From a virus (taxonomy: Duplodnaviria; Caudoviricetes), in the IMG/VR virus record IMGVR_UViG_3300014204_000011, positions 21,751-85,750 of that record: a stretch of DNA of 64,000 nt. One strand, given 5' to 3'. The translations under genes and the position numbers were made by a program. Below the pieces are notes generated by a model. The model was not told the DNA's origin, ran no database searches, and was given only the letters and a program-made list of their open reading frames with translations. Below, one piece after another: positions 2,899-21,592 of this stretch. Positions within the stretch are counted from its first letter, which is position 1. Each line of letters opens with the position of its first letter.

Positions 2899-2904
2899 AT
2901 ATTT

Positions 2905-4293: not shown

Positions 4294-5066
4294 TGATCTT
4301 TGATATTAATCAAGATATTATCATGGACACCATAATGTCAAATATTGAAAATGCAAAAGAAGAATATATTCAAGAAATAATTGAACGTATAGATGATTCA
4401 ATTCCTGGAGTTTTAGAATTACTTTTAAATGATTCCACTGAATATTGGAAAGAAACCGCAATAGGCAAAGGTGGTGGATGGGGAGAAATATATGCCAGTG
4501 CCATTAAAAATAAAGGTACAAGTGATGGTGGCGAAGTTTATATTGATGAAAGTGTAAAAGGTAAAAATAATAAACCTGCAAAAATGTTTTCAGAAATGGT
4601 AGAAAAAGGTGTTAAAAGTTGGTCAATACAAGATGCACTCTTAGCAAGTTCAAAGGCTAAAACAAGTAAAGATGGGATAAAATATATTGTAGTACCTTTT
4701 CCTGTTCGTACACCTTCTAAAAAAGGACAGGGTAAAGTAGGTTCAAGGTTTGGCGGTAGAGAGATGTCCTCTGATGTGTATAAAATTGTAAAAAGTGGTG
4801 GTAAAATATCTAAAGGAACAATGCTTACAACTGCATCAGGAAAAGAAATAGATATTGGAGGTCTTACAAGATTTCAAACACAAAAATTTCATAGTGGTTA
4901 TGGTATATTTAGATGTGTAAGTAAAAATTCTAATGGATGGCAATATCCTGATAAATCTCCAAGACCGGTATTTCCAAGTGTTGTAGATTATGTAAATAAA
5001 AGAGTGGCAGAAATAATTGAAGAACTCTGCCAAGCTATTGTTAAAGAATTTGATATGAGAGATTAA
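4293..5066 (+). CDS. Virion morphogenesis / neck-like protein
   Basis: KYIVVPF and FRCVSKNSNGWQYP motifs resemble Twort-like neck proteins; coupled to MuF. Confidence 0.5.
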   Translation: MIFDINQDIIMDTIMSNIENAKEEYIQEIIERIDDSIPGVLELLLNDSTEYWKETAIGKGGGWGEIYASAIKNKGTSDGGEVYIDESVKGKNNKPAKMFSEMVEKGVKSWSIQDALLASSKAKTSKDGIKYIVVPFPVRTPSKKGQGKVGSRFGGREMSSDVYKIVKSGGKISKGTMLTTASGKEIDIGGLTRFQTQKFHSGYGIFRCVSKNSNGWQYPDKSPRPVFPSVVDYVNKRVAEIIEELCQAIVKEFDMRD

Positions 5067-5854
5067 TCAAAAACCTTAATCTTTATATTCTCACCAATTC
5101 TTGACGGATCTCCTCCATAAATATTAAGTTTATTTTTTATATCATCCTGAAGAGTATAATGAGTATTACCGTTCTTACATACTTTTAATTTAAAATACTC
5201 GTTTTCTGATTCAGGTTTTTTATTAGTTCTTAATTGATCTATAATTGTATGATCTGGTAATTTTTTTCCGTCCAGGATATAACAAAGTTTCTCAAGATCA
5301 TCTGTAATAGTTGGCTTATCTCTATAATAACCAAAAACACGAGAATAATCATATGTGGTTATAATAAAGGTTGTATCTATGCCGTTATTGTTACGTTTCT
5401 TTTTAGTGCTGGAATTGTAATTACTACCTCCAGTATAATAATAACTGTCTGTAATTCGTTCATAAACTGATTTCATCATGGTTTTGATATTATCATAAAT
5501 AATATCTTTTAAACTGGCTATATATCCTTCGGCGTTTTCAATAGTAAATACGGGAAAATCAAATTGATCAATTTGTTTCTGCATTTTTTCATAATCAGTA
5601 CAGAGCATATATTTTTCAAGTTCAAATAATCTGATAAGATATTGCCAGCATGTTCTATCAATGTATTTTTCAGCTCTGTTATCACTATAATTATCAAATC
5701 TATATTCAATTCGATAAGGTCGATAACCTTTAATTTCAGAAAGATCTTTTTCTATTTCATTATCAAGCTTTTCAAGCATTGATAATTGAGTTAAAAGTAT
5801 TTGTTTAAGATTAAATATTTCAGTTATTGATTTGCGCTTTACTGGTAAATTCAT
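5063..5854 (-). CDS. DUF4942-like protein
   Basis: IDRTCWQYLIRL, ITDDLEKLCYILDGK and ENEYFKLKVCKNGNTHYTL match my recollection of the family. Confidence 0.7.
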   Translation of the reverse strand: MNLPVKRKSITEIFNLKQILLTQLSMLEKLDNEIEKDLSEIKGYRPYRIEYRFDNYSDNRAEKYIDRTCWQYLIRLFELEKYMLCTDYEKMQKQIDQFDFPVFTIENAEGYIASLKDIIYDNIKTMMKSVYERITDSYYYTGGSNYNSSTKKKRNNNGIDTTFIITTYDYSRVFGYYRDKPTITDDLEKLCYILDGKKLPDHTIIDQLRTNKKPESENEYFKLKVCKNGNTHYTLQDDIKNKLNIYGGDPSRIGENIKIKVFD

Positions 5855-6057
5855 TTTATCACTTCCAGTTCAATATCTACAAAATTCAATCCACCTTGTT
5901 TATTTTGAATATATTCTAAATTCTCAGGACAATTATCAAGTTTAACAAGAAAACATTTAGATAAAAATCCGGTTTCAGCTTCTTTTGAGATTATAGTTCC
6001 TTCTCCGTAACAAGTTTTAACTCTATCGTTTATTTTCACTTTACCTTCCTCCTGCAC
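5851..6057 (-). CDS. Hypothetical protein (SH3/KOW-like beta fold possible)
   Basis: KINDRVKTCYGEGTII; overlapping operon organisation. Confidence 0.5.
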   Translation of the reverse strand: MQEEGKVKINDRVKTCYGEGTIISKEAETGFLSKCFLVKLDNCPENLEYIQNKQGGLNFVDIELEVIK

Positions 6058-6251
6058 TCTTCTAATAAGCTTTCAAGCTTTTCTATTGTAGGATTACGGT
6101 CAAGAATAATCCGTACATATGTAATACTTCTATCAAGCAATAGGCTTAATTTCTCTGTACTGCCTGCTCTGTGAATATAAAGCCCTATCTCTTTTGCGAG
6201 ATAGAGCTTTAATTCTGTTCGGACTTCTTTATAGTTTTTACTGGTGATCAT
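6036..6251 (-). CDS. Hypothetical protein, possible small DNA-binding protein
   Basis: ATG with GAGG RBS; basic and helical. Confidence 0.5.
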   Translation of the reverse strand: MITSKNYKEVRTELKLYLAKEIGLYIHRAGSTEKLSLLLDRSITYVRIILDRNPTIEKLESLLEECRRKVK

Positions 6252-6382
6252 TTATCCTCTGATTTTTTGAAAGTCTTTTTAGGTCTTTTACTGTCGTGAT
6301 GTTTGACGTATGCCATAACTTCAACGTCTGACATATTCACTTGTAATGCTTTTTTAAACTGCTTAATGCTTTTTTGTGTCAT
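6248..6382 (-). CDS. 44-aa hypothetical protein, missing from the ORF track
   Basis: MTQKSIKQFKKALQVNMSDVEV...; AAGG RBS; TGA overlaps the next ATG. Confidence 0.5.
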   Translation of the reverse strand: MTQKSIKQFKKALQVNMSDVEVMAYVKHHDSKRPKKTFKKSEDK

Positions 6383-6548
6383 TGTCCTTACCTTTTATCC
6401 CTTTTTTTATTTTTAATAAAGCTTTGATTCTTGCCTTGTAGTGTTCGTCACTTTCTTCATAATATTTGAGCTTACCCGTAAAGTCATAGATCGGAATTGT
6501 AAAGTTTTTGTTTTTAAAATTTCTTACCCTTCTTAAAATACAATTCAT
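6363..6548 (-). CDS. Hypothetical protein
   Basis: ATG with AGAGG RBS. Confidence 0.5.
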   Translation of the reverse strand: MNCILRRVRNFKNKNFTIPIYDFTGKLKYYEESDEHYKARIKALLKIKKGIKGKDNDTKKH

Positions 6549-6587
6549 AACTTGCCTCTTTTTTAGATGGAAGATCTGGTTATTTTG

Positions 6588-6755
6588 CTATATACAAAAT
6601 TGTGAAAAATATTTATTCATATCAATTTTTATTATTTTATTATTTTCTAGTTTAAAATAAAGATATTTATGACCAACTTTTACTAATGTTGAATTATTAT
6701 GAAAAGGGTGAGAAAGTTTCCCAAGATTTTCAATGGTGTTGAAATATTTTTTCAT
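6588..6755 (-). CDS. 55-aa hypothetical protein, missing from the ORF track
   Basis: GGAGA RBS then MKKYFNTIENLGKLSHPFHNN...; first gene after the leftward promoter. Confidence 0.55.
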   Translation of the reverse strand: MKKYFNTIENLGKLSHPFHNNSTLVKVGHKYLYFKLENNKIIKIDMNKYFSQFCI

Positions 6756-6789
6756 TTTGTATCTCCTTTAAAATCAATCTCTTATCTAT

Positions 6790-6900
6790 TTATACTATTA
6801 TCAAATCTGATAATGTTTGTCAACAATAAAAGTTAAAATTTTTTACTTTTTTTGATTTTTTTTCGTACTTGACAAAATCTGAATTTATTATGTAAATAAA
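6790..6900. promoter_or_regulatory. Divergent sigma70-like promoters
   Basis: TTGACA at 6823-6818 (minus) and 6869-6874 (plus), separated by A/T tracts. The -10 matches are imperfect. Confidence 0.6.
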
Positions 6901-6923
6901 CCATTATTAACCAGGAGTTATTT

Positions 6924-8936
6924 ATGAATAGAGATCAAATAATTGATTTAATAGATAGACAAATAGACTTTACTGATATGAAAAAAGCTGGTCTTGCACT
7001 GCAAAAACATTATGAAATTAATTCAAGACGCATGGAAGCAATAGATGTTAAAAACTGTCTTGCTAATGGTCATCCAATTGCCATACAGGGAAAATTGATT
7101 ATTGGTTATGATATGCAAAAAGCTTTTGAAAGTAGTGATAGCGAATTTTTTGATATAGAAAGACCGGTTGAAGCTATTGAAATTGTTGAAACTCTTCCAG
7201 AGCGAGAATATTTCGCTATTGTAGGTCGTAACGAATGGGGAGATATTTCAGAATTTAATAATATCATAGGTGATTTAAGACTTGGTGAAATATATCTGCC
7301 TAAACATTCTGCAATATTCAACTTCTTAAATCCTACGGAAAAGACTAAAAAAGAAAAAATTCAAAGTGTTCTTAACGGAGTTCAAGTAATTGTTTATGAA
7401 AGAGAAAACTATGTAGATAACTGCTTCCATGAGATCGGACACCTGTTCTGGAGAACTTGTACAAGATTTGAAGAAAAGATGCAATTTAAAGAATTATTTA
7501 AACATTTACGAACATCTTGTATTTATGAATACGAATGGGAGCGAAGTACGGAAGAAGAGGTTTTTTGTACAATTTATAAATGGTATATGAAGTCTGTGCT
7601 TATAAACAAGAGTTTTTACAACATACTTGAATACGAAGAAAGCTATGGACTTAAATTATTACAAAGTGTTTTTGACCGTATCGCTAAAGAACGGATCATT
7701 GACGATATATGGGAAATGAGCAAAGAAGATGTTATTGAATATTTAAACCCTCCCCTGGATAAAACGACCGGAAAATATATTCGTAAATCAGGTATGTTTG
7801 ATAAGATTAAAGATATAGAACTGCCTGAAAGCATATTGAACCGGATTGAAAGCGTACAGAATGGACAGGCTTTTGTTGGGCTTGGTAAAGCCGTAGTGCC
7901 GGTTAATAATAATCTGATTGATTTTGATAGAATTAAAATGATACCTTTGGAGAAAGCTAATGGTAAACCAACAATATATCTCGATCAAGATGGAATTGTT
8001 ACAAATTTTGCAGAAGCCTACAAGATAGCCTTTAATCGTGATGTATTTAAAGATGACAGTTTTACAGTGACAGAAATGTGTAAAACTGAGCCAAGATTTT
8101 TCTTAACTATACCAGTATTACAGCGTGGTAAAGAATTATATAATCGCTTGGTTAAAAAGTATAATATAATATTTCTCACAACCGCTATGGATGAACTTGA
8201 ATATTGTAGATCTGATAAAGTGACTTGGCTTAAACAGAATATATGTTCAGAGCCTACAATAATATTTTCTGATAATAAAGCTGATTATGCACATTCTGAA
8301 AAAGATATACTCGTGGATGATATGGCTCATAATTTAACCGCATTTTATGAAGCTGGAGGGACTGCAATCAATTTTAATTCTATGTCGAATGATGAGATAA
8401 TGCAAAAGATTGCAGAGACATTAAATCCACAGGAAGAAATAAGACAGATAAAGCAACAAATTAAAGAAATGAAAGTTAATGTAGAGCCGAGTGAAAAACA
8501 AAAAGAGAATGGAAATTACGCTAAAGGAAAAATAATATTTAAACAGATACCAATAACTATAGAAAATCCAAAGGGAAGTATAAGATCAGGCATAGGCGCA
8601 AACGGTGTGAAATGGTTGTCTAAAATGAGTTCACACTACGGATATATTAAAGGTACTGAAGGCAATGATGGAGATGAAATTGATTGCTTTATTGGAGATG
8701 ATTTCAGCACAAACAAAGCCTTTGTTGTAAACCAGGGTTTTAATAATTTATTCGATGAGCATAAAATTCTCCTCGGTTTTAATACAATAGAGGATGCCAG
8801 AACCGCTTTTCTGAAATGTTATTCTAAAGGTTGGGAAAAGAATATCATGAACATAGTACCGACCAATACAAAAGTGTTGAGACAGTGGCTAAAGACCGGC
8901 AATTATAAAGAGCCGTTTAGTGGTGAGTTTAAATAA
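6924..8936 (+). CDS. Polyvalent protein: zincin metallopeptidase + HAD 5'(3')-deoxyribonucleotidase-like + inorganic pyrophosphatase-like domain
   Basis: HEIGH at 7428-7442. TIYLDQDG...LVDDMAHN HAD motifs. ITIENPKGSIRSG...HYGYIKGTEGNDGDEIDCFIG...DEHKILLGF InPase motifs. Confidence 0.85.
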   Translation: MNRDQIIDLIDRQIDFTDMKKAGLALQKHYEINSRRMEAIDVKNCLANGHPIAIQGKLIIGYDMQKAFESSDSEFFDIERPVEAIEIVETLPEREYFAIVGRNEWGDISEFNNIIGDLRLGEIYLPKHSAIFNFLNPTEKTKKEKIQSVLNGVQVIVYERENYVDNCFHEIGHLFWRTCTRFEEKMQFKELFKHLRTSCIYEYEWERSTEEEVFCTIYKWYMKSVLINKSFYNILEYEESYGLKLLQSVFDRIAKERIIDDIWEMSKEDVIEYLNPPLDKTTGKYIRKSGMFDKIKDIELPESILNRIESVQNGQAFVGLGKAVVPVNNNLIDFDRIKMIPLEKANGKPTIYLDQDGIVTNFAEAYKIAFNRDVFKDDSFTVTEMCKTEPRFFLTIPVLQRGKELYNRLVKKYNIIFLTTAMDELEYCRSDKVTWLKQNICSEPTIIFSDNKADYAHSEKDILVDDMAHNLTAFYEAGGTAINFNSMSNDEIMQKIAETLNPQEEIRQIKQQIKEMKVNVEPSEKQKENGNYAKGKIIFKQIPITIENPKGSIRSGIGANGVKWLSKMSSHYGYIKGTEGNDGDEIDCFIGDDFSTNKAFVVNQGFNNLFDEHKILLGFNTIEDARTAFLKCYSKGWEKNIMNIVPTNTKVLRQWLKTGNYKEPFSGEFK

Positions 8937-9706
8937 TGCTTTATTTAAAGGTTGGTGAGAACAAATATATAAAGCTTGAAAGTCTTGAAAAGGCTAGAAG
9001 TCATAAATATGTAAGTAGAAAGCCTGATGGAAAGGGTGGGTGGAAATATTTTTATGCGGATAAAGATAATAAACCTTCGGTAAGAATGGCTAATTACAAT
9101 GACAAATCTTTAAGAATTTATAACAATTTTGAAGGTAATATTTTTAGTGAAAGGCATGGAATAATACAATCAACAAGTAAACAGTCTATCATTAAAAGTA
9201 TTGAAGTTGAAAAAGAAATTGTTAAGAATACAGATTTTGAAACCGGCGCAGCTTTTGACAAAAATGGGAAACTTCTAATAAAGAAAAAAGGTGTTTATGA
9301 TAAAGTTAATTTTGTAGATCCTGAATACAGAATAATAAATGGTTCGGAAATTTTTACACATAATCATCCAGAAGACAAATCTTTTAGTGATGACGATCTT
9401 ATTTTCGCTCTTGTTTTAGGCATTAAAGAAATGCGAATTATATCTCCCTTAAAAACATATTCTTTTAAAATTAGCCATAAAAATAAATCTAAAGATTTAC
9501 AAGAACTTTCTGATAATATAAAATATTATCAGAAAAAAATAATTCAACATCAAAAAATTATTCAATCTGAGAATAGTGATTTAATGAATCAAAATCCTGA
9601 TGAATATTTTTTAAAAAAAGATCATAAAGTGATAGAATCACTAAAGAATGATTCTAATTTTTTAAAACATTTTAACATAAATTACGAGGTAAAAAATAAT
9701 GAATGA
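8936..9706 (+). CDS. Leader-bearing protein with JAB/MPN-like domain
   Basis: 20-aa leader ending LEKA, then RSHKYVSRKPDGKGGWKYFY. ETG...HNHPEDKSFSDDD metal-binding motif. Confidence 0.75.
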   Translation: MLYLKVGENKYIKLESLEKARSHKYVSRKPDGKGGWKYFYADKDNKPSVRMANYNDKSLRIYNNFEGNIFSERHGIIQSTSKQSIIKSIEVEKEIVKNTDFETGAAFDKNGKLLIKKKGVYDKVNFVDPEYRIINGSEIFTHNHPEDKSFSDDDLIFALVLGIKEMRIISPLKTYSFKISHKNKSKDLQELSDNIKYYQKKIIQHQKIIQSENSDLMNQNPDEYFLKKDHKVIESLKNDSNFLKHFNINYEVKNNE

Positions 9707-9869
9707 TAATTTTTTTAATCCCATAAGTAAGGAAACGAAAGAAAAAGGTTTTTTTTCTTTAGGAGGTATGGAAAAAGATATAAAGAGGCAAGAAGAATTA
9801 AAGAATATAAACCTTAAAGATTTGGAAAAAGAAATAGAAGAACTGGAGAAGAGATTGGATCATGAATAA
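9699..9869 (+). CDS. 56-aa hypothetical coiled-coil peptide, missing from the ORF track
   Basis: GAGG RBS; MNDNFFNPISKETKEKGFF...LEKRLDHE; overlaps both neighbours. Confidence 0.55.
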   Translation: MNDNFFNPISKETKEKGFFSLGGMEKDIKRQEELKNINLKDLEKEIEELEKRLDHE

Positions 9870-10050
9870 TATTGAAATAAAAAATCCTGAAGTCCATATT
9901 GACGGATCTTCTAATAAATTATTTTATATTTTTGCAGATAAAGTCTTTAAAACAGGTAATAATCAAACCGAAAAAGAACAGCTAAAAGTTAAAATCAATA
10001 AATCAATACTTAATATCGAAGAAAAAAATATGCTATTAGGTTTTTTATGA
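9862..10050 (+). CDS. Hypothetical protein
   Basis: Overlapping operon organisation. Confidence 0.55.
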   Translation: MNNIEIKNPEVHIDGSSNKLFYIFADKVFKTGNNQTEKEQLKVKINKSILNIEEKNMLLGFL

Positions 10051-10325
10051 CAGATTTAGAGAGTAGAAATTATCGTAAAGTTTTTCATCCAAATGGAATG
10101 AGTATAGATACTATAGATATGAATGAATCTTTTAAATGGGAGAAATCTTGTGAATATAGTTTTTCTGAAAAATCAAAACTTATAACTAAGATATTAACAA
10201 AATATGGTATTGAGGATGAAATAATAGTTCAAAGATTAAAGAAATGTTTACCAAAAGGTAAAAATGAATTTTTATCTTATACAGATAATGAATACGAATC
10301 ATTAATAAAGGAGTTTAACTTATGA
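10047..10325 (+). CDS. Small protein, paralog of 14306..14611 (candidate immunity/partner)
   Basis: Shares SEKSK, R[LI]KKCLP, DNEY and KEFNL with the paralog. Confidence 0.7.
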   Translation: MTDLESRNYRKVFHPNGMSIDTIDMNESFKWEKSCEYSFSEKSKLITKILTKYGIEDEIIVQRLKKCLPKGKNEFLSYTDNEYESLIKEFNL

Positions 10326-13300
10326 AAACAAAAATAGACTTCTCGCTCTATACTCCTCAGATGTTGCGTGATCAGATTCAAGAAGAGCTTTTAAAAGTCG
10401 ATGATGCAAAGCAAGCGTCATACAATGCAATTGTTTTTCTCAATAATTTATATGGAGCAAAGAACATGCAGAAGGCAAAAGAACTTTCCAAACTTATAAA
10501 AAAACAAATTATTGATAAAACTGGTAAATCAACTACAGTTTATGTCAAACCCGAAGGATCTAAAACTGAATGGCTAAATAAATTCATTAGTTTCTTTGGA
10601 TTTAGTAATGCAGGTCAAGCTAATCAGCGTATTGAACAGGATTATAAAAAGCTTGAACTTGATAAAAAAGGCGTGACCTGGTCAGATTGGAAAAGTCATG
10701 TAAGTGAATATTTCAGCAATAAAGATAAATGGGACAGATTTTTTTCAGGTAAATCTTCAGAGAAAAAAGCTACAGAAAAAAAAGAAGATGCAAAAGCAAA
10801 GAAAGCTGAAAAGAAACCGGTTAAGCAGACTTTTAAATTATCTCTCATGAAAGTAGTTGCAGGATTGTACGGTAAAGCTCCGGAGAAGAAGAAAGAAGAA
10901 CCGGTAAAGGCGGTTGAAAAACCCATTGAAAAACCTATCGAAAAGCCAGTCGAAAACAATTTTGATACTATGCCAGAAACCGTTGCAGAACCTGAACCAG
11001 AACCAGTTAAAGAAGAGCCTGTTAAATCAGGTGAAGAAACTCTTCAGGGTAAATTCGATAGATGGAAAACAGGAGATTTAACAGGTGTTGAAGGTCATAA
11101 ATTTAATATGACTAAAACTATGATGGGTAAAGGTGGTCCTAAAACATTTTTTAATGAAATTATTATAGAGAAAATATCAAATGGATTTATGAGTTATGTT
11201 GATGCTGTAGGTGGTAGGGAAAGTTTTTCAGGTGGCATTTCTGAAAAAGGGTTTATTAATGATTTAAAAAATGGTTCGATGATTCCCGTAGGTCTGGAAA
11301 AAACCATTGATACCGGTAACGGATCTAAGATTGAAGCTGTTAAAGCCTACACTCCTGAACAGAGAAAAGAGGTTAATGCCGATGCTAAAGAAGCGGCGAG
11401 AGAGGGTTATTTTAACGAACGACCGGCTGAGATATTAAATGTCGGTAAAGATGTATGGGGTGCAGCTAGACATAATTATGATACTTATCAGCAAATGAAC
11501 GCTGATGTAAATCAAATGGAAAAAGAAGGAACTGCACAAGCATATGTAACAAAGAAGAACCTTTTCGGAGATTATGGACTTGCCAATAAAGATGAAAGAG
11601 TTGGCAAAGGTGAAACCGAATATAAGGTATTAGCAAGTTTTGTAATGAGAGAATATCTTTCTAAAATGCCTCCGAATAATCCTACAGATAGAGCAATGTA
11701 TATGGATTTTTGTCGTGCCATTTCAAGACTTGATCAAAATACAACTGATGCTAAAACATTTTATTTTGGTATGGCTGAGACTTTTGCTCAGATGTTTCCG
11801 ATAGAAGCACAAAAACCAGCCACTCCTGGACAGGGTATAAGCGTACTTGATATGATACCACAGAATAGAAAAGGTAAAAAACCTGAAGACATTATAGGCC
11901 CTGTTCTTACGGCTTTATTCTATTCACTGAATCAGCAGGCTAATCAGAGCCGGAACATATATTACGGTATGGATAAGAAAGAACGTAAGCAGATGGATGT
12001 AATGAGTGCAGCACTTCTAGCTGAAATCGGTAAGACTAATAAGACTTATAATGAACTTGAAGTTATGATTTTTGGAGAAACAAAACTATCCGGCATTAAA
12101 ATGAAAAAAGGTGATGCGGTTGTGTTTGCTGAAAATCTTGCTGATCATGTTTATGCTATAAGAATAGATTATGCTAGTGATGAAGATAAATTAAAGCATG
12201 ATGCTTTAATAAAAGAAATTAATAATATTGGAGCAGATGGTCATTTTCTATATCTTTCAAATAAAGAAAAAGAAAAGAAATTACCTGAACTCAATAAGAA
12301 ATATGGAACTAATTTTACTATGGATAAATCGTGGGAAGTTACGAAATATATAGATGAATTAGTAAGAGAAAAATCAGTTGAAGCTGCTAAATATAGAATA
12401 AGAACTAAAATTTTCCCAGAAGAAAAAGGACAGATTATAAAAGTTGGTAAAAGTGATATAGAGGTTGCATTCAAATTTCCTAATGGAACAATTAAAGGTT
12501 TTAGAATGAAACCAAGTGAATTAAAACCTGAGAATGTAGAATCTATTTCAAAAGACATAAAAAGGAAAGAGACACTAATATTGAATCTTGCCGTTGAAAA
12601 AAAAGTAATTCGTAAAGGTGGTAAAGATTTCTCAGGTCTTTCAATTACTGAACTTCAAAATAAACTTACCGAAGATTTTAAATTCAAAGCTATTCAGTAC
12701 GGAAACAGTGTACCAGATGACGAAAGACAGTATCATACACAATGGACTCTTGAATCAATGTCTGATCTTGAAGATATTACAGGCATACCATTAGAGCAAC
12801 TTACAGCACGGGGTAAACTTGGTATAGCTTTTGGAGCAAGAGGTAAGCCTATCCCTGGAATTGGAGCAGGTGCTTTAGCTCATTATGAACCTACAACTAA
12901 AATGATAAATATTACCCGTGCCAATGGTTACGGCAGTCTTGCTCATGAGTGGGCGCATTTCGCCGATAATATTTTATCACCAGATATGAATGATTATATT
13001 ACTATTCAGCCCAAAGCTATTGTAAAAGAAGTAAACTCTTCTAATATTAAAATAGGTTCGATTTATGAACACGAAACAAGGAAAGGTAAAAAGACAATTA
13101 CAGAAAGATACTATTATGATGGTAAAGATCCAGAATGGCCTTTTGCTAAATTAAATAATGGTCAGAGTGAACCCGATAGTAAATCAATGCACTCTAACTT
13201 TTATAAATTTAAAAACGGGCAATCTCTAAAAGTTTTAGAACCTGATAATTTACCTTTTATGGAGATAGCTTCTAAAATTGCAAGATTATCACAACAGTCT

Positions 13301-13678
13301 TTGCACGATCAAGCCAATAAGATCGATGATGGAATAAACAAAAAGCATATATTAGAAGATCCATATTTAAATGACAGAAAAGAATGTTTCGCCAGAGCTT
13401 TTGAAATATATATTGCAGATAAACTCAAAGAAAAGGGAAGAGTGAATACATATCTTGTAAGTCATAGAAAAACATTTGAACAGGATGGAGCTTCAATTTA
13501 TCCGCAGGGAACATTTAGAACCGAAATAAACAAAATGTTTGATGAGTTTTTTATAGAAATAAACAAAAATCAGGAGATGAAAAAAGCAATAGACAAATTA
13601 TTAAAACAGAATAAAAATGTTTATATAAAGAAACTCAATCCCATAACTCAAAAGCCCGAATACAGGAAGGTAAAGTGA
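10322..13678 (+). CDS. Large polyvalent protein with C-terminal LPD1-like metallopeptidase region
   Basis: AIQYGNSV, GKLGIAFGARG, AHYEP, GSLAHEWAHFAD (HEWAH 12944-12958), ECFARAFE, YPQG. MQKA at 10466-10477 and MKKA at 13577-13588. Confidence 0.85.
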   Translation: MKTKIDFSLYTPQMLRDQIQEELLKVDDAKQASYNAIVFLNNLYGAKNMQKAKELSKLIKKQIIDKTGKSTTVYVKPEGSKTEWLNKFISFFGFSNAGQANQRIEQDYKKLELDKKGVTWSDWKSHVSEYFSNKDKWDRFFSGKSSEKKATEKKEDAKAKKAEKKPVKQTFKLSLMKVVAGLYGKAPEKKKEEPVKAVEKPIEKPIEKPVENNFDTMPETVAEPEPEPVKEEPVKSGEETLQGKFDRWKTGDLTGVEGHKFNMTKTMMGKGGPKTFFNEIIIEKISNGFMSYVDAVGGRESFSGGISEKGFINDLKNGSMIPVGLEKTIDTGNGSKIEAVKAYTPEQRKEVNADAKEAAREGYFNERPAEILNVGKDVWGAARHNYDTYQQMNADVNQMEKEGTAQAYVTKKNLFGDYGLANKDERVGKGETEYKVLASFVMREYLSKMPPNNPTDRAMYMDFCRAISRLDQNTTDAKTFYFGMAETFAQMFPIEAQKPATPGQGISVLDMIPQNRKGKKPEDIIGPVLTALFYSLNQQANQSRNIYYGMDKKERKQMDVMSAALLAEIGKTNKTYNELEVMIFGETKLSGIKMKKGDAVVFAENLADHVYAIRIDYASDEDKLKHDALIKEINNIGADGHFLYLSNKEKEKKLPELNKKYGTNFTMDKSWEVTKYIDELVREKSVEAAKYRIRTKIFPEEKGQIIKVGKSDIEVAFKFPNGTIKGFRMKPSELKPENVESISKDIKRKETLILNLAVEKKVIRKGGKDFSGLSITELQNKLTEDFKFKAIQYGNSVPDDERQYHTQWTLESMSDLEDITGIPLEQLTARGKLGIAFGARGKPIPGIGAGALAHYEPTTKMINITRANGYGSLAHEWAHFADNILSPDMNDYITIQPKAIVKEVNSSNIKIGSIYEHETRKGKKTITERYYYDGKDPEWPFAKLNNGQSEPDSKSMHSNFYKFKNGQSLKVLEPDNLPFMEIASKIARLSQQSLHDQANKIDDGINKKHILEDPYLNDRKECFARAFEIYIADKLKEKGRVNTYLVSHRKTFEQDGASIYPQGTFRTEINKMFDEFFIEINKNQEMKKAIDKLLKQNKNVYIKKLNPITQKPEYRKVK

Positions 13679-14322
13679 CTAACAGACTTATAATTAAACT
13701 GGCTGATGGTCTTTATATAGATTTAAGTAAAGCCCGAAGTCATAAATATATCAGTCGCAAACCTGATGGTAAAGGAGGTTGGATTTATACTTATTATAAA
13801 AAACCTGTTGGAAATAGTTATGCTGTAAATTATAATGATATGAGAGATTTTGATTATGAAAAAGCAGTTCAAATATATAAAGATACAGAATCTATAAGAA
13901 ATATTAAAAATTATGAACATTCAAAAATATATGATAATAAAGGGATAGTGTTACTTTATAAAATATTTCCTAAAACTGGAGGGAGTTTTACTAATGAAGA
14001 ATTAAATAAAATTGAAAATTCAAAATTATTAATACATAATCATCCTTCAGGAGATTCTTTTTCCACAAAAGATATTCAGTTAATTATCGAAAAAAATATA
14101 AATGAAATTAGAGCCATAGGTCAAAAAGAAAAAACAAAAACTATTTTTTCTTTAAAATTGGAAAAACAAATTCCAATTGAATTAAAAAGAGATTTATTGA
14201 ATTACCATTTTAGCTTATGGAATATAAATAAAACAACTGGAGATAAATTTTTTGCTCATAAAACAATGCAAGATTTTATAAAAGTTTATGGAGAATATTT
14301 TAAATATGAAAGAATTAAATAA
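13675..14322 (+). CDS. Leader-bearing protein with JAB/MPN-like domain, paralog of 8936..9706
   Basis: GTG start. 20-aa leader ending LSKA, then RSHKYISRKPDGKGGWIYTY. YEH...HNHPSGDSFSTKD. Confidence 0.75.
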   Translation: MTNRLIIKLADGLYIDLSKARSHKYISRKPDGKGGWIYTYYKKPVGNSYAVNYNDMRDFDYEKAVQIYKDTESIRNIKNYEHSKIYDNKGIVLLYKIFPKTGGSFTNEELNKIENSKLLIHNHPSGDSFSTKDIQLIIEKNINEIRAIGQKEKTKTIFSLKLEKQIPIELKRDLLNYHFSLWNINKTTGDKFFAHKTMQDFIKVYGEYFKYERIK

Positions 14323-14611
14323 AAAAGATTTTAAAAGAAATAAAATTTATCATGAATTGTTTTATCCAAATTCGCCTTTAGGTTTAGATGGAGAAGAAAT
14401 GTCTTCTGAAAAATTTGCGGAAAAAATAAAATCTTCTAAAATATCTGAATCAGAAAAAAGTAAAATAATTAAAATATTGATACAAAATTATGATTTTATA
14501 GATAAAAATATATACAACAGAATAAAAAAATGTCTACCAAATGGATTTAATTCAATGTATTCAATAGAGGATAACGAATATTTTGAATTAAAAAAAGAGT
14601 TTAATTTATAA
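14306..14611 (+). CDS. Small protein, paralog of 10047..10325 (candidate immunity/partner)
   Basis: Overlaps the JAB gene end; GGAG RBS before ATG 14306 (14288 is an alternative start). Confidence 0.7.
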   Translation: MKELNKKDFKRNKIYHELFYPNSPLGLDGEEMSSEKFAEKIKSSKISESEKSKIIKILIQNYDFIDKNIYNRIKKCLPNGFNSMYSIEDNEYFELKKEFNL

Positions 14612-14652
14612 AAAAACATGAATATTATTAATAAAATGGAAGGTTAAATAAC

Positions 14653-17600
14653 ATGGCAAATAAAATATTTTTTAAAACAGTTGAAGGTAAATATGTATCA
14701 CTTGATAAAGCTTCAAATCCCGAAGATAAAGTTCGTAAGGTTATGGGTGAGTTTAAAAGAGGTACTTTACATTCCAGTTCCGGTCAAAAGGTAACTTCAA
14801 AAGACCAGGCTTTGGCAATCGCAATGTCGGAGAGTGGATTATCTAAACAAATGGTTGCTGATATTCTTATTGATTATGATGATATGGAAAAAGCAAGTCA
14901 GATAAAAGAAGGGATTAAAGTAGAAAAAGAACATATTCCTACTATGAAATATATTAAAGATAAGTTTGGAAAATATCATAAAATGGCTAATACTGAAGAT
15001 ATTGCCGAGCACATCGCCGGAGACCATCTTGAAGAGATAAAAGATTATTATACAAGATTACTTGAAATGGAAAAACAGGCTAAAGGCGATAAAAAAAGAC
15101 CTCAAATCGAAATTGATGTAATTAAATTTTTAATTGATAATCCGAATCCTGCGGATAGTAAAGTTCATACTTTTAGTGATAAAATAGGCATAGACACACA
15201 TAAACTTGAAGCGATATTCTATAAACTTGCTACTGAAAGAGCTGAAATGAGTAAAGACATGCAGAAAGCTAAGTCTGCAATAGGTACTACTGCAACTTGG
15301 GCTGACGGTAAACAATATCGTAAAGTAGCTGAAGGTCAATGGGAACAGGTTAAGGGTGACGGTAAAAGCCATAATGCTAAATTAGGTGGCGGAGCACATG
15401 GTTATGGCAAACACGATGTAAGTACAGCACCGAAGCTTCATAAGAGATTTATGGATTATCTACAGAACATGAGCCAGGAACATCGGGACATATTCAGAGG
15501 CGGTAAGTTTGATTTTGAAAAGAAAACATTTACAGCTATAGGCGGTAAAGTAGCTTTGCTTTGGAAAGATGATAAAGTTAATATTGTTAAGACTGATAAA
15601 ATGGATAAAGCCCGTGTGACCAAATATATAAAAAGAGTGCCGAAGCCGTCAGGTAAGGGTTATTATTATTTCTATACAAAGCAGCAGTTTAACCAGTATA
15701 AAGAGACTGGAAAAGTTCCTGAACAAGAAAAAGGCGATTCAGCTTTACAAAAGATATTCAAATTTTTAGGTGTTGATAATTGGATGGACGGTAGTAAAAA
15801 AATAGGTTCAATATACGAATCTAATAAAAGCTCTCTTCTTGAAAATAATGTCGATAAAAAGACTTTTGCTGAATACAGTGTAGAATACTTATCTAATAAG
15901 GAAAAATGGGATTCTCGTTTAAGTGGTGAGAAAAAAGAAAAGTCAGAGTCAAAGCCTAAGTCTGAACAGCCTAAATCTGAGAAAAAAGAGAGTGGTGATA
16001 AAAAAGAAGGTAAATGGAACATGGGTGTAATGCGAGCTATTGCAGGGATTTATGGAAGCGGAGAAATAAAGAAAATTGATACAGAAATGCCTATGCCTAC
16101 TACTCCCAACAAAAAAGATGATAAGAATAAAAAAGATAAGGAAGCCCCTAAAAAAGGTTTTGAAGATGAGCTAAATGAACGGGAAAAAGAAGGTAACAAT
16201 AAAACTTATACTAATAAGATAAAGCAATTACAAAATGAAATAAATAGTTTTTCCAAAACAGCTTCCGGAGGAAGTAAATATTCTCTTGATTCTAAAGGAA
16301 ATGAAGATTCTGGAGAAATGTCTATTCAATTAAAAGATAGTGTATCTGGTAAAATTATTCCTAATACACAAATAACTGGTAAAATTAAAGATTTTTTAAA
16401 TATTAAAAATCAATTGATTGAAAAAATGAAAGAAATAGACAGTAATGACAAATCCCCTGACAACTTCGATACTATGCCGGAGGGGGACGATATAGAAAAA
16501 GGCATAGAGGATTATTATAAAAAAATTACAGAAGAATTTAGTAATGAAAAACCTGATTTAAATAAAATCAAGAAAGTTGCTAAAGAAAAAGCTGATAAAA
16601 TAAATTCAATTATGAATAAAGAAATTTCTTTAGATACAGGCGGAATAGTTAAGTCAAATAAGAAGTTTATACTTGAAAAATATGATCCAAAAGAAGATAA
16701 AATGACTTTTAAAGATAATAACGGAAAAACTCAGGAAATAACTTTTTCTAAATTTGAAAAAGAAAATCCTAAATTTTTTAACAGTCAAAAACCCTCCGCA
16801 ACCGAAGCACTGAAAACTTTTACGATAGTAGATAATAATAATCCTGAAAGAACCGTAAAAGTGCAAGCTAAAGATGAAAATGAAGCTAAAGATAAAGGTG
16901 CTTCAGAACTTAAAACTACAAACATAAGAACTTATGAGTCAAGTAATAAAGTAGAAGCACTGAAAGATGAGTTGGGGAAGAAAAAGAGCGAGAGTAGAGA
17001 AAGAGAAATAACTGTTTTTGGTAAACAGCAAAAAGTTAAAACTAAGCCGATAGAATTAAACTTGGGATATGGTCATCCTTTTGAGATTGCTAAAAGAGAA
17101 TTTGGAAGTGGTCGCTCAGATTGGATTATTCTTGAAAGTAGTACGGGTTTAAAGGTTGGAGATGGCAAAACTCAAAAAGAGGCTATTAGTAACGCTGAAT
17201 CTATGATAAAAAATTATACTCCAACAGAGAATGAATTTAAAAAATTAATTGAAAAAAGTTTATCTTCCGAAAATGTTTTAAAACGTGAAAAAGAAATAGA
17301 AAAAAATAAAGAAATAGATAAAAAAGTTGAAAAAGATTTTGAAGATAAATCTGAAAAAGGCCAGTCCCAAATAAAGAAAAACGAAGAAGATGATAAGCGA
17401 AAACAGGTTCAAAAAGATAAATTAAATTCTTCAGATCCACAGAAAAAATATGATGCAATGAAGGAAGAAATTAGAGATTTTTCAGAAAGAAATAATATAT
17501 CTGAAAAAGAAATAACAAAAGAATGGATAAATGAAGAAAGAAAACGTTTTCAACAGGATATAAAAGATGCTTATAAGTATAAAAAACCGAAAGAAGCTGG

Positions 17601-18111
17601 AGTTTATAAAGTTGGATTAAAAGAACTTGATAATATTGAAAAATATCAAAAAGAAATGATTTCTTTAAAAGAAGAACTACTCGGCCCGAAAATGTTCAAA
17701 GCCCTGTCAAATCTAAGAGAAGAGTTAATGTTTAAAGCCCAAACTACAAAATATATTAAAAGAATACCCGATCCAAAAGGCAAGGGATATATTTACTTTT
17801 ACACACAAGATCAGGTTAAAGCATATCAGAAAGATGGAACTATACCAAATCAGCAGAAAAAGCCTAAGACTAAACCAGAACAAGGTGGTAAAACTAACAT
17901 AGAAAAGCTTAAAGAAACTACAAAAAAAATAGCCACTATTGTTGCTGATGCTTTAAGTGCTAAAGATGCGGTAAATCCTGCTGGACAGGCAGTAGAACAA
18001 GCCGGAGAAGATATAAACGAAAAGAACAAAATGAAAAAAAGACTTGAAGAAAAGCAAGTACCTGATAAAAAGAAACAAGTTAATAAACCGGAGGAAAAAC
18101 CGAAAAAGTGA
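14653..18111 (+). CDS. Large multi-module polyprotein (DUF6496-like, DUF5661-like, repeated KY modules), likely internal virion protein
   Basis: KVMGEFKRGTLHSSSGQKVTSKDQALAIAMSE; GIKVEKEH...DHLEEIKDYYTRL; IGTTATWADGKQYRKVAEGQW; two KYIKR.P.P.GKGY.YFYT modules; five or more [LM]xKA sites. Confidence 0.75.
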   Translation: MANKIFFKTVEGKYVSLDKASNPEDKVRKVMGEFKRGTLHSSSGQKVTSKDQALAIAMSESGLSKQMVADILIDYDDMEKASQIKEGIKVEKEHIPTMKYIKDKFGKYHKMANTEDIAEHIAGDHLEEIKDYYTRLLEMEKQAKGDKKRPQIEIDVIKFLIDNPNPADSKVHTFSDKIGIDTHKLEAIFYKLATERAEMSKDMQKAKSAIGTTATWADGKQYRKVAEGQWEQVKGDGKSHNAKLGGGAHGYGKHDVSTAPKLHKRFMDYLQNMSQEHRDIFRGGKFDFEKKTFTAIGGKVALLWKDDKVNIVKTDKMDKARVTKYIKRVPKPSGKGYYYFYTKQQFNQYKETGKVPEQEKGDSALQKIFKFLGVDNWMDGSKKIGSIYESNKSSLLENNVDKKTFAEYSVEYLSNKEKWDSRLSGEKKEKSESKPKSEQPKSEKKESGDKKEGKWNMGVMRAIAGIYGSGEIKKIDTEMPMPTTPNKKDDKNKKDKEAPKKGFEDELNEREKEGNNKTYTNKIKQLQNEINSFSKTASGGSKYSLDSKGNEDSGEMSIQLKDSVSGKIIPNTQITGKIKDFLNIKNQLIEKMKEIDSNDKSPDNFDTMPEGDDIEKGIEDYYKKITEEFSNEKPDLNKIKKVAKEKADKINSIMNKEISLDTGGIVKSNKKFILEKYDPKEDKMTFKDNNGKTQEITFSKFEKENPKFFNSQKPSATEALKTFTIVDNNNPERTVKVQAKDENEAKDKGASELKTTNIRTYESSNKVEALKDELGKKKSESREREITVFGKQQKVKTKPIELNLGYGHPFEIAKREFGSGRSDWIILESSTGLKVGDGKTQKEAISNAESMIKNYTPTENEFKKLIEKSLSSENVLKREKEIEKNKEIDKKVEKDFEDKSEKGQSQIKKNEEDDKRKQVQKDKLNSSDPQKKYDAMKEEIRDFSERNNISEKEITKEWINEERKRFQQDIKDAYKYKKPKEAGVYKVGLKELDNIEKYQKEMISLKEELLGPKMFKALSNLREELMFKAQTTKYIKRIPDPKGKGYIYFYTQDQVKAYQKDGTIPNQQKKPKTKPEQGGKTNIEKLKETTKKIATIVADALSAKDAVNPAGQAVEQAGEDINEKNKMKKRLEEKQVPDKKKQVNKPEEKPKK

Positions 18112-18302
18112 AAGAAAAGATAATTATAAAAGATGCGGTTAAAAGAAACTGCCCGTTTTGTGGTACTATGTATGCTTACGAAAATAAAGAATTAGGGCAG
18201 GTTGTATATAGAAATGTAGCTTTTATATTTATAGATAAAGCAAAAAGCATTGAAACTATAAAATGTAAACAGTGCGGAAATGTAGTAGCAATCAATACTT
18301 AA
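18108..18302 (+). CDS. Zinc-ribbon protein (possibly Com-like)
   Basis: CPFC...CKQC; GTG start overlaps the previous stop. Confidence 0.65.
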   Translation: MKEKIIIKDAVKRNCPFCGTMYAYENKELGQVVYRNVAFIFIDKAKSIETIKCKQCGNVVAINT

Positions 18303-18311
18303 AATTAAGAC

Positions 18312-18341
18312 TTGACAGATTTTATATTTTTGTTTTAGAAT
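18312..18341 (+). promoter_or_regulatory. Sigma70-like promoter for head genes
   Basis: TTGACA-N18-TAGAAT upstream of the prohead protease. Confidence 0.65.
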
Positions 18342-18410
18342 GTACTCTAAATAATAAACAAATAATCCAGCCGTTACAAGGAAATGTTTATTTCTCTAAA
18401 GAGAGGTAAA

Positions 18411-19295
18411 ATGTTTTTTCAGATTAACGGCTTAACCATCCAAAACCTACAAAAAGCTTCAGACGACAAGCTTGTTAAAGTTGATATTATAGCCAATCAT
18501 CTTACCGAAGATAGTGACGGAGAAGTAATACTCAAAGAAGCATTTTCTCCCGAAGTTATCAATGATTTTCTTTCGACCGGCGTAATTAATTTCTGGCATG
18601 ATAATAAAAATCCTCTCTTATCAAAAGAAGAGCAAATGAACGCTTTACTTGGTAAACCCATAGCTTTTAGATGGGAGAATGGAAAGCCTGTAGTTACTGC
18701 ACAACTTACTAAATCACATCCTATCGTACAAACAATGATGCCTCATCTTGAAGCAGGTAATCCTGTGTATAGCGCAAGCGTAGATGGATCTAAAATGGTT
18801 ATGCTTGTAGAAAATAGTGAAGGTGAGAAAAAGAAAGTCATACCTAAAATCAAATGGAACGGACTTGCCATAGCCCCCTGTAATTCAGTAATCAATCGAG
18901 AACCAGGTGTTAATGTTAAATTGTTAAGTAAGGCAAATGATATAATTGCTGAATTTAACGATATGGATAGCTTTAAAATGATGTCTGGACAGATCTTCTC
19001 CCAAGAAACCGAACTCCGTAAAGCTTTATCTGCCCCTGAAAGTGTAGGTGATATGCAAAACACTTCAGGAGGAGTTATAACAAAACAAGATTTAGAAAAA
19101 AGCGTTACATCTTTAACCTTTTCCGAGGATGAAGCATGTAATCTTATAGATACAATATTAGGTATTAAAAATGGTTCGATACCAATAACAATAAATGAAT
19201 ATAAGAACCATTTTAAAAATAATGAAGAATTTGCTGATAAGTCTTATCGGCTGTTCGATAAATATTTCAAAAAAAACAACAAGGAGCAATCGTAA
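18411..19295 (+). CDS. Prohead maturation protease
   Basis: EDSDGEVI, INFWHD, YSASVDG, WNGLAIAP resemble Twort/SPO1-like proteases; directly upstream of scaffold and capsid. ATG 18411 has a GAGAGG RBS. Confidence 0.8.
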   Translation: MFFQINGLTIQNLQKASDDKLVKVDIIANHLTEDSDGEVILKEAFSPEVINDFLSTGVINFWHDNKNPLLSKEEQMNALLGKPIAFRWENGKPVVTAQLTKSHPIVQTMMPHLEAGNPVYSASVDGSKMVMLVENSEGEKKKVIPKIKWNGLAIAPCNSVINREPGVNVKLLSKANDIIAEFNDMDSFKMMSGQIFSQETELRKALSAPESVGDMQNTSGGVITKQDLEKSVTSLTFSEDEACNLIDTILGIKNGSIPITINEYKNHFKNNEEFADKSYRLFDKYFKKNNKEQS

Positions 19296-19296
19296 C

Positions 19297-20076
19297 ATGA
19301 TAACAAAAGAAGAATTGTTACAGAAAGGAATTGATCCTGCCGAAGCTGATAAGATAATTTCGGCTCTCGAAGGACAAGCTGAAAATTCCTCTCCCCTTGA
19401 AGCTCTAAATAAGGCTCTAAAAGATGATTCAGAAATGGATTCTCTTTTTAAAGCAGCCAAAAAGGGAGAGGGTGATGAGGATGACGAAGAGGATGAAGAG
19501 GAATATGACGAAAAGTTCATGAAAAAGATGAAAAAGTACATGAAGTCAAAAGGCAAAGAAGACAGTGGTGATGACGATGACGACAAAGGCTTTTTCGGAA
19601 AAGAAATGAAAAAAGCTGTTGATGACATTAATCCTGATTCAGATGGACTTGTTATTGAAATGGCTGATTTTAAACCGGTTTTTGAGTCTATGGTATCGAC
19701 AATACAAAAGATGTCAAAAGCTATATCCGGACTTGAAAGAAAGGTTGAAGTTCTTTCAGAGCAAAACTCTGATTCTTACAGTCTTTTGGCTAAAGCTGCT
19801 GCTGTTACTGCCGAAACTGCGGAGATTGTAACTGGAATGGGTAATATTCCGGCTGGAAGAAAAGGTGCTTTAATAGCAGACATGAAAAAAGCTAAACAAG
19901 TCGAAAATGTAGATCCTCAAAAAGTTTGGACAGCTCTCGCTAAGGCTGTAAATGCCGGTGATTTGAAAGCTGGAGAAATTGGATCTAAATTTGAAAGTGC
20001 TGGAAAAAGATTCGGTTTTCTATCTGATCCAGAACAGGCTTATGTTATGGAACTTATGAAAAAGGAGGCTAACTAA
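19297..20076 (+). CDS. Capsid scaffolding protein
   Basis: Acidic and helical with many KA sites, between protease and capsid. AAGGAG RBS favours ATG 19297. Confidence 0.75.
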   Translation: MITKEELLQKGIDPAEADKIISALEGQAENSSPLEALNKALKDDSEMDSLFKAAKKGEGDEDDEEDEEEYDEKFMKKMKKYMKSKGKEDSGDDDDDKGFFGKEMKKAVDDINPDSDGLVIEMADFKPVFESMVSTIQKMSKAISGLERKVEVLSEQNSDSYSLLAKAAAVTAETAEIVTGMGNIPAGRKGALIADMKKAKQVENVDPQKVWTALAKAVNAGDLKAGEIGSKFESAGKRFGFLSDPEQAYVMELMKKEAN

Positions 20077-20077
20077 G

Positions 20078-21592
20078 ATGGATGAACTATATATGTTAGC
20101 AGAAAACGGGATGGGGGACATGGGGCTTGGCTCTCTATCGCAACTTGAAGCATTAAGTAAAGCTCTTTCTGCCCCTGCGAGTTATACAGATCTTTATACA
20201 ACTCCAGGTGGCTCACTTACAATGCAATCATTGGAAATGATGCTTGCAACTCTTACTCTTAAAGCTACTGATTTTACTCTATGGCAGGATATGAACAAGA
20301 TGAAAGCATATTCTACTGTTGAAGAATATGATCAGCAGACTGGTCTTGGTATCTCTGATGGTGGATTTGTTGACCAATTCAGCAATCCTACATTTCAAGA
20401 CGCTGATTTTATCAAACAAATCTCAATTGTTAAGTTCATGAGAGAAGGTTGGAAGGTTGGTGATGTACAGGAAGCAACCAGAACAACTATAGACATAAGA
20501 ACAAAACAACAGCAAGCTGCTATGGCAAGGATGTTGAGAAACCTTGACCGTGCGCTTTATAACGGTAACTCTGCATGGATTCCTGAAAGTATTGATGGTC
20601 TTGCTAAAACCATTGCTGCTTCTTCTTCAGAACAGATTTATGATATGAGAGGCGGTAATGTAACTATGGGTACATTTAACCTTATCGGTCAGCTTATCAC
20701 TGAAGGAAATGGTCAGGTAGAAAATGCGAAAATATATGTTTCTCCGGCTGGAGTTCAAAATCTAAGCACTATTACTGAAGACGGTACTACTGCTGCTAAT
20801 AACAGAAAGATAATGAAATCTGGTGATGCTAATATTACTATCGGTGGTAAAATATCAGGTATTATGACAAATTTCGGTGAGATGAAACCGAGAATGGATA
20901 AAATACTTGGTCTTGAATTTGAAGCACAAGGCGTTCCTAAATACAGGAATAATACTACCGGTCTTTGGGTAGAAGGTGCTACTGCTGATAATGCTCCTTC
21001 AGCTCCGGCGGTTGCTCTTACTGTTAATGCTGTTGGTACAGGCTCTAAGTTTAGCGCAGGTACAACCAGACCTTCAGGCGTTGCATATTCTTATAGAGTA
21101 AGTGCAAGGAATAAATATGGAAGATCAATAGCTTGCGCTGCTGTAACGGCTGGTTCAACTGTAGCTGCCGGTGGATCTATTTCAATTGCTATTACTCCCG
21201 CTGCTGGAGATAGCGGTGCGAAAGTTCCTTCTTGTTTCGTAATTTATGCTAAAAAAACAGAAGATGCGAATAATGATTATAGATACATGGACACAATCGC
21301 TGCGGATGCAACTAATCCTCTTGCTGCCGTAACATATGAAGATAAAAATCTTTATATACCAGGTACAGCGAGAATGTATGTTATAGACCAAACTACACAG
21401 GGAGAAAGCAGAGTTCTTTCTTATGCTCAGTTACTTCCTATTCACAACACAGATCTTGCTAAAGTCGGGCCTTATAGCCAGGGACTTATCAATCTGTATG
21501 GTACTATGAAATATTACAAGCCGAATGTTCTTGTTGAAATCAGAAATATCGGTGTATCTCAGACAAATGCAAATCTTTACAATGTAGTTTAA
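20078..21592 (+). CDS. Major capsid protein (Twort/SPO1-like)
   Basis: Propeptide ending LSKA; SLTMQSLE, AYSTVEEY, SIDGL; FN3-like insertion YSYRVSARNKYGRS; LINLYG. Confidence 0.9.
   Translation: MDELYMLAENGMGDMGLGSLSQLEALSKALSAPASYTDLYTTPGGSLTMQSLEMMLATLTLKATDFTLWQDMNKMKAYSTVEEYDQQTGLGISDGGFVDQFSNPTFQDADFIKQISIVKFMREGWKVGDVQEATRTTIDIRTKQQQAAMARMLRNLDRALYNGNSAWIPESIDGLAKTIAASSSEQIYDMRGGNVTMGTFNLIGQLITEGNGQVENAKIYVSPAGVQNLSTITEDGTTAANNRKIMKSGDANITIGGKISGIMTNFGEMKPRMDKILGLEFEAQGVPKYRNNTTGLWVEGATADNAPSAPAVALTVNAVGTGSKFSAGTTRPSGVAYSYRVSARNKYGRSIACAAVTAGSTVAAGGSISIAITPAAGDSGAKVPSCFVIYAKKTEDANNDYRYMDTIAADATNPLAAVTYEDKNLYIPGTARMYVIDQTTQGESRVLSYAQLLPIHNTDLAKVGPYSQGLINLYGTMKYYKPNVLVEIRNIGVSQTNANLYNVV

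Follow-up and report, generated by a model that had tools for sequence, protein, structure and literature searches.

The tailed-phage record IMGVR_UViG_3300014204_000011 of IMG/VR is a complete 85,750-bp virus genome with direct terminal repeats, and we analysed bases 21751–85750 of it (64,000 nucleotides, GC content about 30%; hereafter the window). Upstream of the capsid gene, proteins with enzyme domains carry four copies of a short basic and aromatic β-hairpin (hereafter the tag), each preceded by a putative cleavage site. These proteins resemble phage polyvalent proteins, multi-enzyme products of genes close to the head genes, for which packaging, delivery with the DNA and processing by peptidases have been predicted (Iyer, Burroughs, Anand, de Souza, Aravind 2017, PMC5512222). 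The comparisons below indicate that the tag is a widespread, apparently unnamed unit found in hundreds of phages of the same capsid type, and that the four enzyme modules headed by it in the window are probably carried inside the phage head. We favour, while giving it about an even chance, the explanation that the four copies represent a cargo tag, with a hairpin that would be retained after a cut by the maturation protease and would serve as a protein handle for a conserved component of the head.

Four conserved copies of a β-hairpin tag

The first-pass annotation of this sequence had placed four copies of the module, each three residues after a K-A pair. Translation bears this out, as does a search of the entire 85,750-bp genome with a tag profile, which returned these four tags and no others, with E-values of 6e-17 to 1.5e-14. 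The residues joining K-A to K-Y read KA-RSH-KY in two copies, KA-RVT-KY in one and KA-QTT-KY in another. A strict tag pattern gave no match in 300 residue shuffles of the six reading frames, which rules out a chance repeat as the origin of the copies. Copies 1 and 2 differ by seven synonymous and three non-synonymous codon changes, and copies 3 and 4 by nine and six; a recent DNA duplication as their source is ruled out by this mostly synonymous pattern. The two paralogous proteins that carry copies 1 and 2 (8936–9706 and 13675–14322) are 31% identical overall, with 17 of 20 identical residues (85%) in the tag. Given this identity and the predominance of synonymous differences, we conclude that the tag peptide is under purifying selection. 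Two further units had been listed as similar, and these follow M-Q-K-A at positions where homologues bear a canonical tag, although neither matches the tag profile. Because the homologues in related phages hold the canonical tag at exactly those positions, we regard the two units as degenerate or replaced tags.

The tag core, K-Y-h-x-[RK]-x-P-x-G-x-G-G-[WYF]-x-Y-x-Y (h, hydrophobic; x, any residue), is a β-hairpin of 17–18 residues, and across 207 modules it occurs in two forms. The short form (n = 166) comprises a 17-residue hairpin, with K1, Y2, G11, Y15 and Y17 conserved at 97–100%, followed by an unconserved linker. The long form (n = 41) comprises an 18-residue hairpin and a conserved short helix, giving a ββα arrangement, together with a G-x-L-P motif.

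The β-hairpin that had been anticipated for the module is present in AlphaFold2 models of copies 2 and 3, which were computed from 20 sequences of the 215-residue protein family and from 7 sequences of the copy 3 region, respectively. In the model of the 215-residue protein, a leader hairpin (residues 6–10 and 13–16) precedes the tag hairpin (strands 25–30 and 36–40, with a predicted local distance difference test score, pLDDT, of about 60–66), and a confident RadC-like domain follows. Residues 21–23 (R-S-H), directly past K-A, have a pLDDT below 50. In the copy 3 model, the site is disordered, the hairpin (12–15 and 22–25) and helix (28–37) reach a pLDDT of about 80, and a disordered linker joins the tag to a helical domain, here called domain X. 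Domain X is conserved behind long-form tags (15718–15990, 10553–10800 and in gp26 of Leptospira phage LE1) and ends in S-N-K-[DE]-K-W-D, after which comes a Lys/Glu-rich linker.

Fold searches with the model of the tag plus domain X against VIA wide and BFVD gave nothing above noise, the helical domain dominating these searches and the tag part being barely tested by them; an ESM Atlas look-up gave no usable match. Pfam, NCBIfam and PHROGs contain no named family for the tag, and phrog_36535, of unknown function, overlaps copy 3. The hairpin may resemble the first two strands of AP2.

The hairpin follows a putative maturation-protease site

We counted upstream sites for 250 modules in 148 proteins, with random 16-mers of the same proteins as background. 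The motif [MLFIVW]-x-K-[ASG] occurs within 16 residues upstream of the tag in 222 modules (89%), compared with 11.7% of the background, and K[AS] alone occurs in 78% compared with 25%. The first-pass annotation had raised the question whether K[AS] precedes the motif in every case; a site is usual, but not universal. The refutation envisaged there, a motif common without such a site or in non-virion proteins, is not borne out: tags that lack a site are rare, and the carriers are polyvalent proteins of head operons. Between site and K-Y there are 0–11 residues, most often 3 or 8–9, and because this spacing varies, the cut site and the hairpin are separate elements, the site being no part of the fold. 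Six of the 250 modules are located at a native N-terminus. Several exceptions carry h-x-H-[AS] in place of h-x-K-[AS] before the tag, which may reflect a different protease specificity. Carriers of this variant (P0079, P0088, P0098 and P0155) have long basic or Ser-rich low-complexity tails after their tags.

The same motif is found at the expected boundary of the capsid propeptide. The capsid proteins from 14 tag-bearing phages have only 20 invariant columns in common, among them K28 and A29, and L26 is conserved to at least 90%; the distant ones of these proteins are 18–29% identical to that of the window. These conserved L, K and A residues lie 17–50 residues from the N-terminus, as expected of a propeptide boundary. 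The window protease mimics the capsid site, with L-R-K-A-L-S-A-P (19014–19050) resembling L-S-K-A-L-S-A-P in the capsid protein (20153–20190), and the likeness around the site suffices for phmmer cross-matches between these open reading frames in related phages. Bacillus phage SP-10 has L-N-K-A at the same place in the product of a gene annotated as capsid precursor; the C-terminus of its protease mimics the capsid sequence, and of the eight h-x-K-[SG] sites in its scaffold, seven are h-x-K-S. In LE1, F-x-K-[SG] is found in the capsid protein, in the scaffold, in gp25 and before the tag. In one phage, the residue that follows the lysine is shared as well, the tag site I-L-K-G and the capsid site L-R-K-G both having G at the P1′ position.

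Head and tail proteins of the window differ in their content of the motif: h-x-K-A occurs 25 times in head open reading frames, against 9.1 expected from composition, and twice in tail open reading frames, against 4.8 expected (Fisher p = 3.6e-5). Its invariance at the capsid propeptide boundary and its enrichment in head proteins make it very probable that L-x-K-A is the maturation-protease site, and cleavage at the broader form [LMF]-x-K-[ASG] is likely. Since the hairpin is on the C-terminal side of this site, it would become a new N-terminus. The first-pass annotation had proposed such an exposure by cleavage, and the proposal gains support from the motif at the capsid boundary, its enrichment in head proteins, the order of site and hairpin, and the N-terminal tags of the IMG/VR record L031, described below. 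In the literature that we searched, there was nothing usable on an experimentally determined capsid-protein N-terminus for SPO1-like phages, and nothing beyond Iyer et al. on processing of polyvalent proteins by a prohead protease.

Three cargo proteins of the window open with a 20-residue leader, a predicted β-hairpin ending in L-x-K-A (8936–8995, 13675–13734 and 14653–14712). The third leader has no K-Y tag behind it. The N-terminus of the protease looks similar to the leader, perhaps over 18411–18458.

The tag is widespread and linked to one capsid lineage

For searches beyond the window, we built a 35-column profile from 26 modules, beginning three residues before K-Y so that K-A was excluded. 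Among 1.84 billion representative proteins it matched 442 clusters at E ≤ 1e-3, of which 39 reached E ≤ 1e-10. Two to five copies are present in many carriers, which can be as long as 2,900 residues. Several of the 49 carriers scanned have Zeta_toxin, ddrB-ParB, RelA_SpoT, LPD1, ART-PolyVal, InPase, Kinase-PolyVal or NUDIX domains, with 2–4 carriers per family. In other phages, the RadC-like domain and tag are fused to the end of a polyprotein or stand behind a different leader. The evolutionary cassette comprises the site, the tag and the domain, in this order. A contig scan with the tag alignment produced 600 pattern matches, none of them confirmed, the query being too short to be informative.

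By tblastn of the tag peptides against 50,697 cultured-phage records, we found Leptospira phage LE1 only, plus a weak match to an Erwinia phage at E 0.2. In the LE1 locus (25878–31187 of the record), gp26 starts with a leader, F-L-K-G and the tag. The protein is annotated as a ParB N-terminal domain protein; gp25, annotated as 'tail protein', combines an NT5C-like motif with 11 h-x-K-[SGA] sites. Both gp25 and gp26 look like head cargo and not tail parts.

A different layout occurs in the 105-kb record L031 (58% complete), where at least 11 adjacent small genes (500–11800), beside a sheath-like gene, encode proteins that begin with the tag, only a few residues behind the start methionine. All nine matches of the tag profile in this record fall within about 10 kb. 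L031 splits into separate tagged genes what other phages fuse into polyproteins. Because these tags directly follow the start methionine of separate proteins, a function of the tag at an N-terminus fits. One of the tagged small proteins has a phosphoribosyltransferase-like motif.

In nine of the ten tag-bearing records that were searched whole, phrog_752 gave a strong capsid match (E 1e-60 to 1e-93); the tenth, the partial L031 record, yielded no capsid protein. In seven further tag-bearing phages, the window included, the capsid gene lies in the examined flank. Ten tag-less phage records from the same retrieval gave no strong phrog_752 match and one weak one, and five complete ones among these controls likewise had no tag. 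On this gene content, the tag is linked to the SPO1/LE1-type capsid lineage.

Genomic setting of the tagged proteins

The head operon spans 6924–21592 and encodes three large and two small proteins, then the protease, scaffold and capsid protein, with tail genes downstream (Table 1). As is typical of polyvalent proteins, several domains occur per polypeptide, with the hallmark families InPase, LPD1 and RadC, and the genes lie directly upstream of those for the protease, scaffold and capsid protein. The K-Y tag is absent from the 670-residue cargo protein, which has four h-x-K-A sites and six [MLFIV]-x-K-[AS] sites overall; its homologues bear a canonical tag ahead of NT5C.

The top Foldseek matches of the RadC/JAB-like domains are RadC 2qlc (probability 1.0) and MPN domains. 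Both domains have the metal motif H-N-H-P-x5-S-x-x-D (9359–9400 and 14035–14076), in which the spacing from His to Ser is presumably one residue below that of RadC. A three-gene cassette of a tagged RadC/JAB-like protein, a small protein and a polyvalent protein of about 1100 residues occurs twice in tandem (8936–13678 and 13675–18111). Its small proteins have 92 or 107 residues and a conserved C-terminus, and the two cassette copies are strongly diverged. Behind the last tag of the 1152-residue protein, a basic tail of about 90 residues (17845–18111) is conserved in related phages. Upstream of LPD1 in the 1118-residue protein is an H-E-W-A-H zincin-type motif (12944–12958), of the peptidase kind that Iyer et al. 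proposed for self-processing and thus an alternative cutter. The longest open reading frames called for the protease and scaffold share 101 nt (19195–19295), and the real scaffold start is probably more downstream.

Table 1. Tags, putative cleavage sites and head-operon genes in the window
Feature	Coordinates	Strand	Evidence or remark
Tag copy 1, short form (hairpin only), residues 21–40 of the 256-residue RadC/JAB-like protein	8996–9055	+	Translation, profile
L-E-K-A, putative maturation-protease site before copy 1	8984–8995	+	20-residue leader is 8936–8995
Tag copy 2, short form, residues 21–40 of the 215-residue RadC/JAB-like protein	13735–13794	+	Translation, profile, AlphaFold2
L-S-K-A, putative site before copy 2	13723–13734	+	Leader is 13675–13734
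Tag copy 3, long form (hairpin and helix), inside the 1152-residue protein	15613–15717	+	Translation, model; helical domain X next
M-D-K-A, putative site before copy 3	15601–15612	+	Disordered in model
Tag copy 4, long form, about 120 residues from the C-terminus of the 1152-residue protein	17740–17844	+	Conserved basic tail next
M-F-K-A, putative site before copy 4	17728–17739	+	Translation
Degenerate tag after M-Q-K-A (10466–10477), 1118-residue protein	10478–10552	+	Canonical tag in homologues
Degenerate or replaced tag after M-Q-K-A (15259–15270), 1152-residue protein	15271–15342	+	Canonical tag in homologues
Polyvalent protein, 670 residues	6924–8936	+	Pfam NT5C and InPase
RadC/JAB-like protein, 256 residues: leader, site, tag, domain	8936–9706	+	H-N-H-P...S-x-x-D at 9359
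Polyvalent protein, 1118 residues	10322–13678	+	Pfam LPD1; H-E-W-A-H zincin motif at 12944
RadC/JAB-like paralogue, 215 residues: leader, site, tag, domain	13675–14322	+	Foldseek RadC 2qlc, probability 1.0
Polyvalent protein, 1152 residues	14653–18111	+	Leader, DUF6496, DUF5661, tags 3 and 4
Probable prohead protease	18384–19295	+	L-R-K-A at 19014, then copy of the capsid post-site sequence
Probable scaffold protein	19195–20076	+	Seven h-x-K-A sites
Major capsid protein, phrog_752 (SPO1-like type)	20078–21592	+	L-S-K-A at 20153–20164

Comparison with known head-cargo systems

Like the polyvalent proteins described previously, the window proteins and other tag carriers hold hallmark domains (PMC5512222). 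Processing there was proposed to involve zincin-like peptidase domains within the proteins themselves, whereas the cut site in the window matches the capsid protein's own maturation site. In the main text of PMC5512222 we came across neither the hairpin nor the h-x-K/A punctuation.

In phage T4, the internal proteins and Alt have a short N-terminal peptide with a maturation-protease site, which marks unrelated head cargo that is later ejected (PMC9026906). The T4 targeting peptide precedes the cut and is lost on maturation, whereas the K-Y hairpin is always downstream and would be retained. The T4 protease also differs from that of the window phage in its type and in its site, which is after Glu. 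By analogy, the 20-residue leader of the window is the better candidate for a counterpart of the removed T4 peptide.

For the giant phages SPN3US and phiKZ, two reports describe many head-internal proteins that the prohead protease cleaves as the head matures and that are ejected afterwards (PMC10052503, PMC7411985). These phages differ from the window phage in having another cleavage motif and another capsid lineage. Their cuts reportedly fall at one short motif. We know of no description of a conserved retained hairpin in the SPN3US or phiKZ ejection proteins.

Phage P1 carries defence-countering Dar proteins in its head, and DarA-Hdf are located on the inner face of the capsid, touch the DNA and exit together with it (PMC12810830). 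The tagged cargo is similar in its ParB-type content, since the LE1 tag carrier and 4 of the 49 scanned carriers hold ParB or ddrB-ParB-type domains. P1 differs in that it uses dedicated adaptor proteins, with no known sequence relation to the tag, and not a repeated peptide. A short conserved peptide also appears on unrelated enzymes as the cargo-loading peptide of encapsulins, which docks inside an HK97-fold shell. Encapsulin peptides differ in being usually C-terminal, unstructured and unlinked to proteolysis, with no homology to the tag.

A proposed retained handle and its alternatives

We propose the following course of events. Polyvalent precursors would enter the procapsid, where the maturation protease would cut them at [LMF]-x-K/[ASG] sites, as with the capsid protein, the scaffold and the protease itself. 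Each freed module would retain the hairpin at its new N-terminus, and the hairpin would then dock to a conserved component of the capsid lineage, which might be the shell interior, the scaffold or the protease. Docking would bring the cargo into the head or hold it there until ejection. We favour a protein handle because the tag is restricted to one capsid lineage and because DarA-Hdf of P1 provide a precedent on the capsid interior.

Several points weigh against this explanation. Many proteins carry 2–5 tags, though one loading tag per polyprotein would suffice. The tag is lost or degraded at three junctions of the window phage, whose 670-residue cargo protein has none, and it is therefore not needed at every module. 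Its conservation far exceeds that of the capsid protein, a pattern that binding to a universal ligand such as DNA would also fit, and common descent alone could explain the link to the capsid lineage. No capsid protein came from the L031 record, which is 58% complete.

An unlikely but substantial alternative, put forward in the first-pass annotation, is that the hairpin, being basic and aromatic, attaches to packaged DNA or a DNA end once cleavage has taken place, so that the enzyme leaves with the genome or stays held during ejection. The tag has a mean net charge of +3.2 in the short form and +4.8 in the long form, and an invariant aromatic ladder of Y2, W/Y13, Y15 and Y17; as for a universal ligand, it is extremely conserved across phages with capsid proteins under 30% identical. 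One tag per freed fragment would suit a need that arises after cleavage, and DarA-Hdf likewise contact DNA. However, no nucleic-acid-binding Pfam family matched over the tag, tag position 6 is frequently acidic, and in the long-form model the aromatics may pack against the tag's own helix. Restriction to a single capsid lineage, moreover, is not required of a generic DNA binder, and some junctions do without the tag.

The hairpin might otherwise be an exosite that docks the maturation protease and positions the adjacent h-x-K/A, in which case the protease may carry the cargo into the procapsid. We consider this improbable, since the distance from site to tag varies (0–11 residues), the sites of the capsid protein, scaffold, protease and several cargo proteins (before DUF6496 and DUF5661) have no hairpin, and L031 proteins have the tag without the site. 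Docking of this kind would nevertheless directly explain the adjacency of site and hairpin in 89% of modules, and it would account for the presence of a site before the tag even in very short leaders of 7–15 residues. The protease is also inherited along with the capsid lineage.

There is a slim chance that the tag acts only after delivery, addressing the enzyme to a host structure or nucleic acid or protecting the new N-terminus, its position being incidental. It would stay on the mature fragment, unlike the removed T4 targeting peptide, and is joined to very different enzymes, both of which fit a role in the host. Yet the hosts appear diverse, as judged only by a low- to high-GC coding range, while the tag is nearly invariant, and a host-side role leaves the link to capsid type unexplained. 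Slimmer still is the chance that there is no cleavage and that h-x-K-A and hairpin form a structural connector between domains of large proteins: the case for cleavage is comparative for every member, but the motif stands at the capsid propeptide boundary (K28 and A29 invariant), is multiplied in scaffold proteins and lies in segments predicted to be disordered, and the tag also occurs at native N-termini.

The retained handle could be part of something more general. Site and hairpin together might be a portable two-part address code of the whole capsid lineage, necessary and sufficient to load, cut free and deliver any protein, with the hairpin docking to a conserved receptor of the head such as a shell pocket, the scaffold or the protease; we put this forward tentatively and think it rather doubtful in so strong a form.

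Polyvalent proteins are regarded as the earliest weapons that a phage delivers, and the unit of site and hairpin provides a testable rule for the identity of such cargo and for the positions at which it would be cut. Prediction of cargo from sequence in uncultured phages would follow from this rule, and the cultured carrier Leptospira phage LE1 makes experiments feasible. If the hairpin is a loading or anchoring handle, chosen proteins could be loaded into laboratory phage capsids. If the two-part address code proves true, it would amount to a naturally occurring, programmable means of protein delivery common to hundreds of phages.

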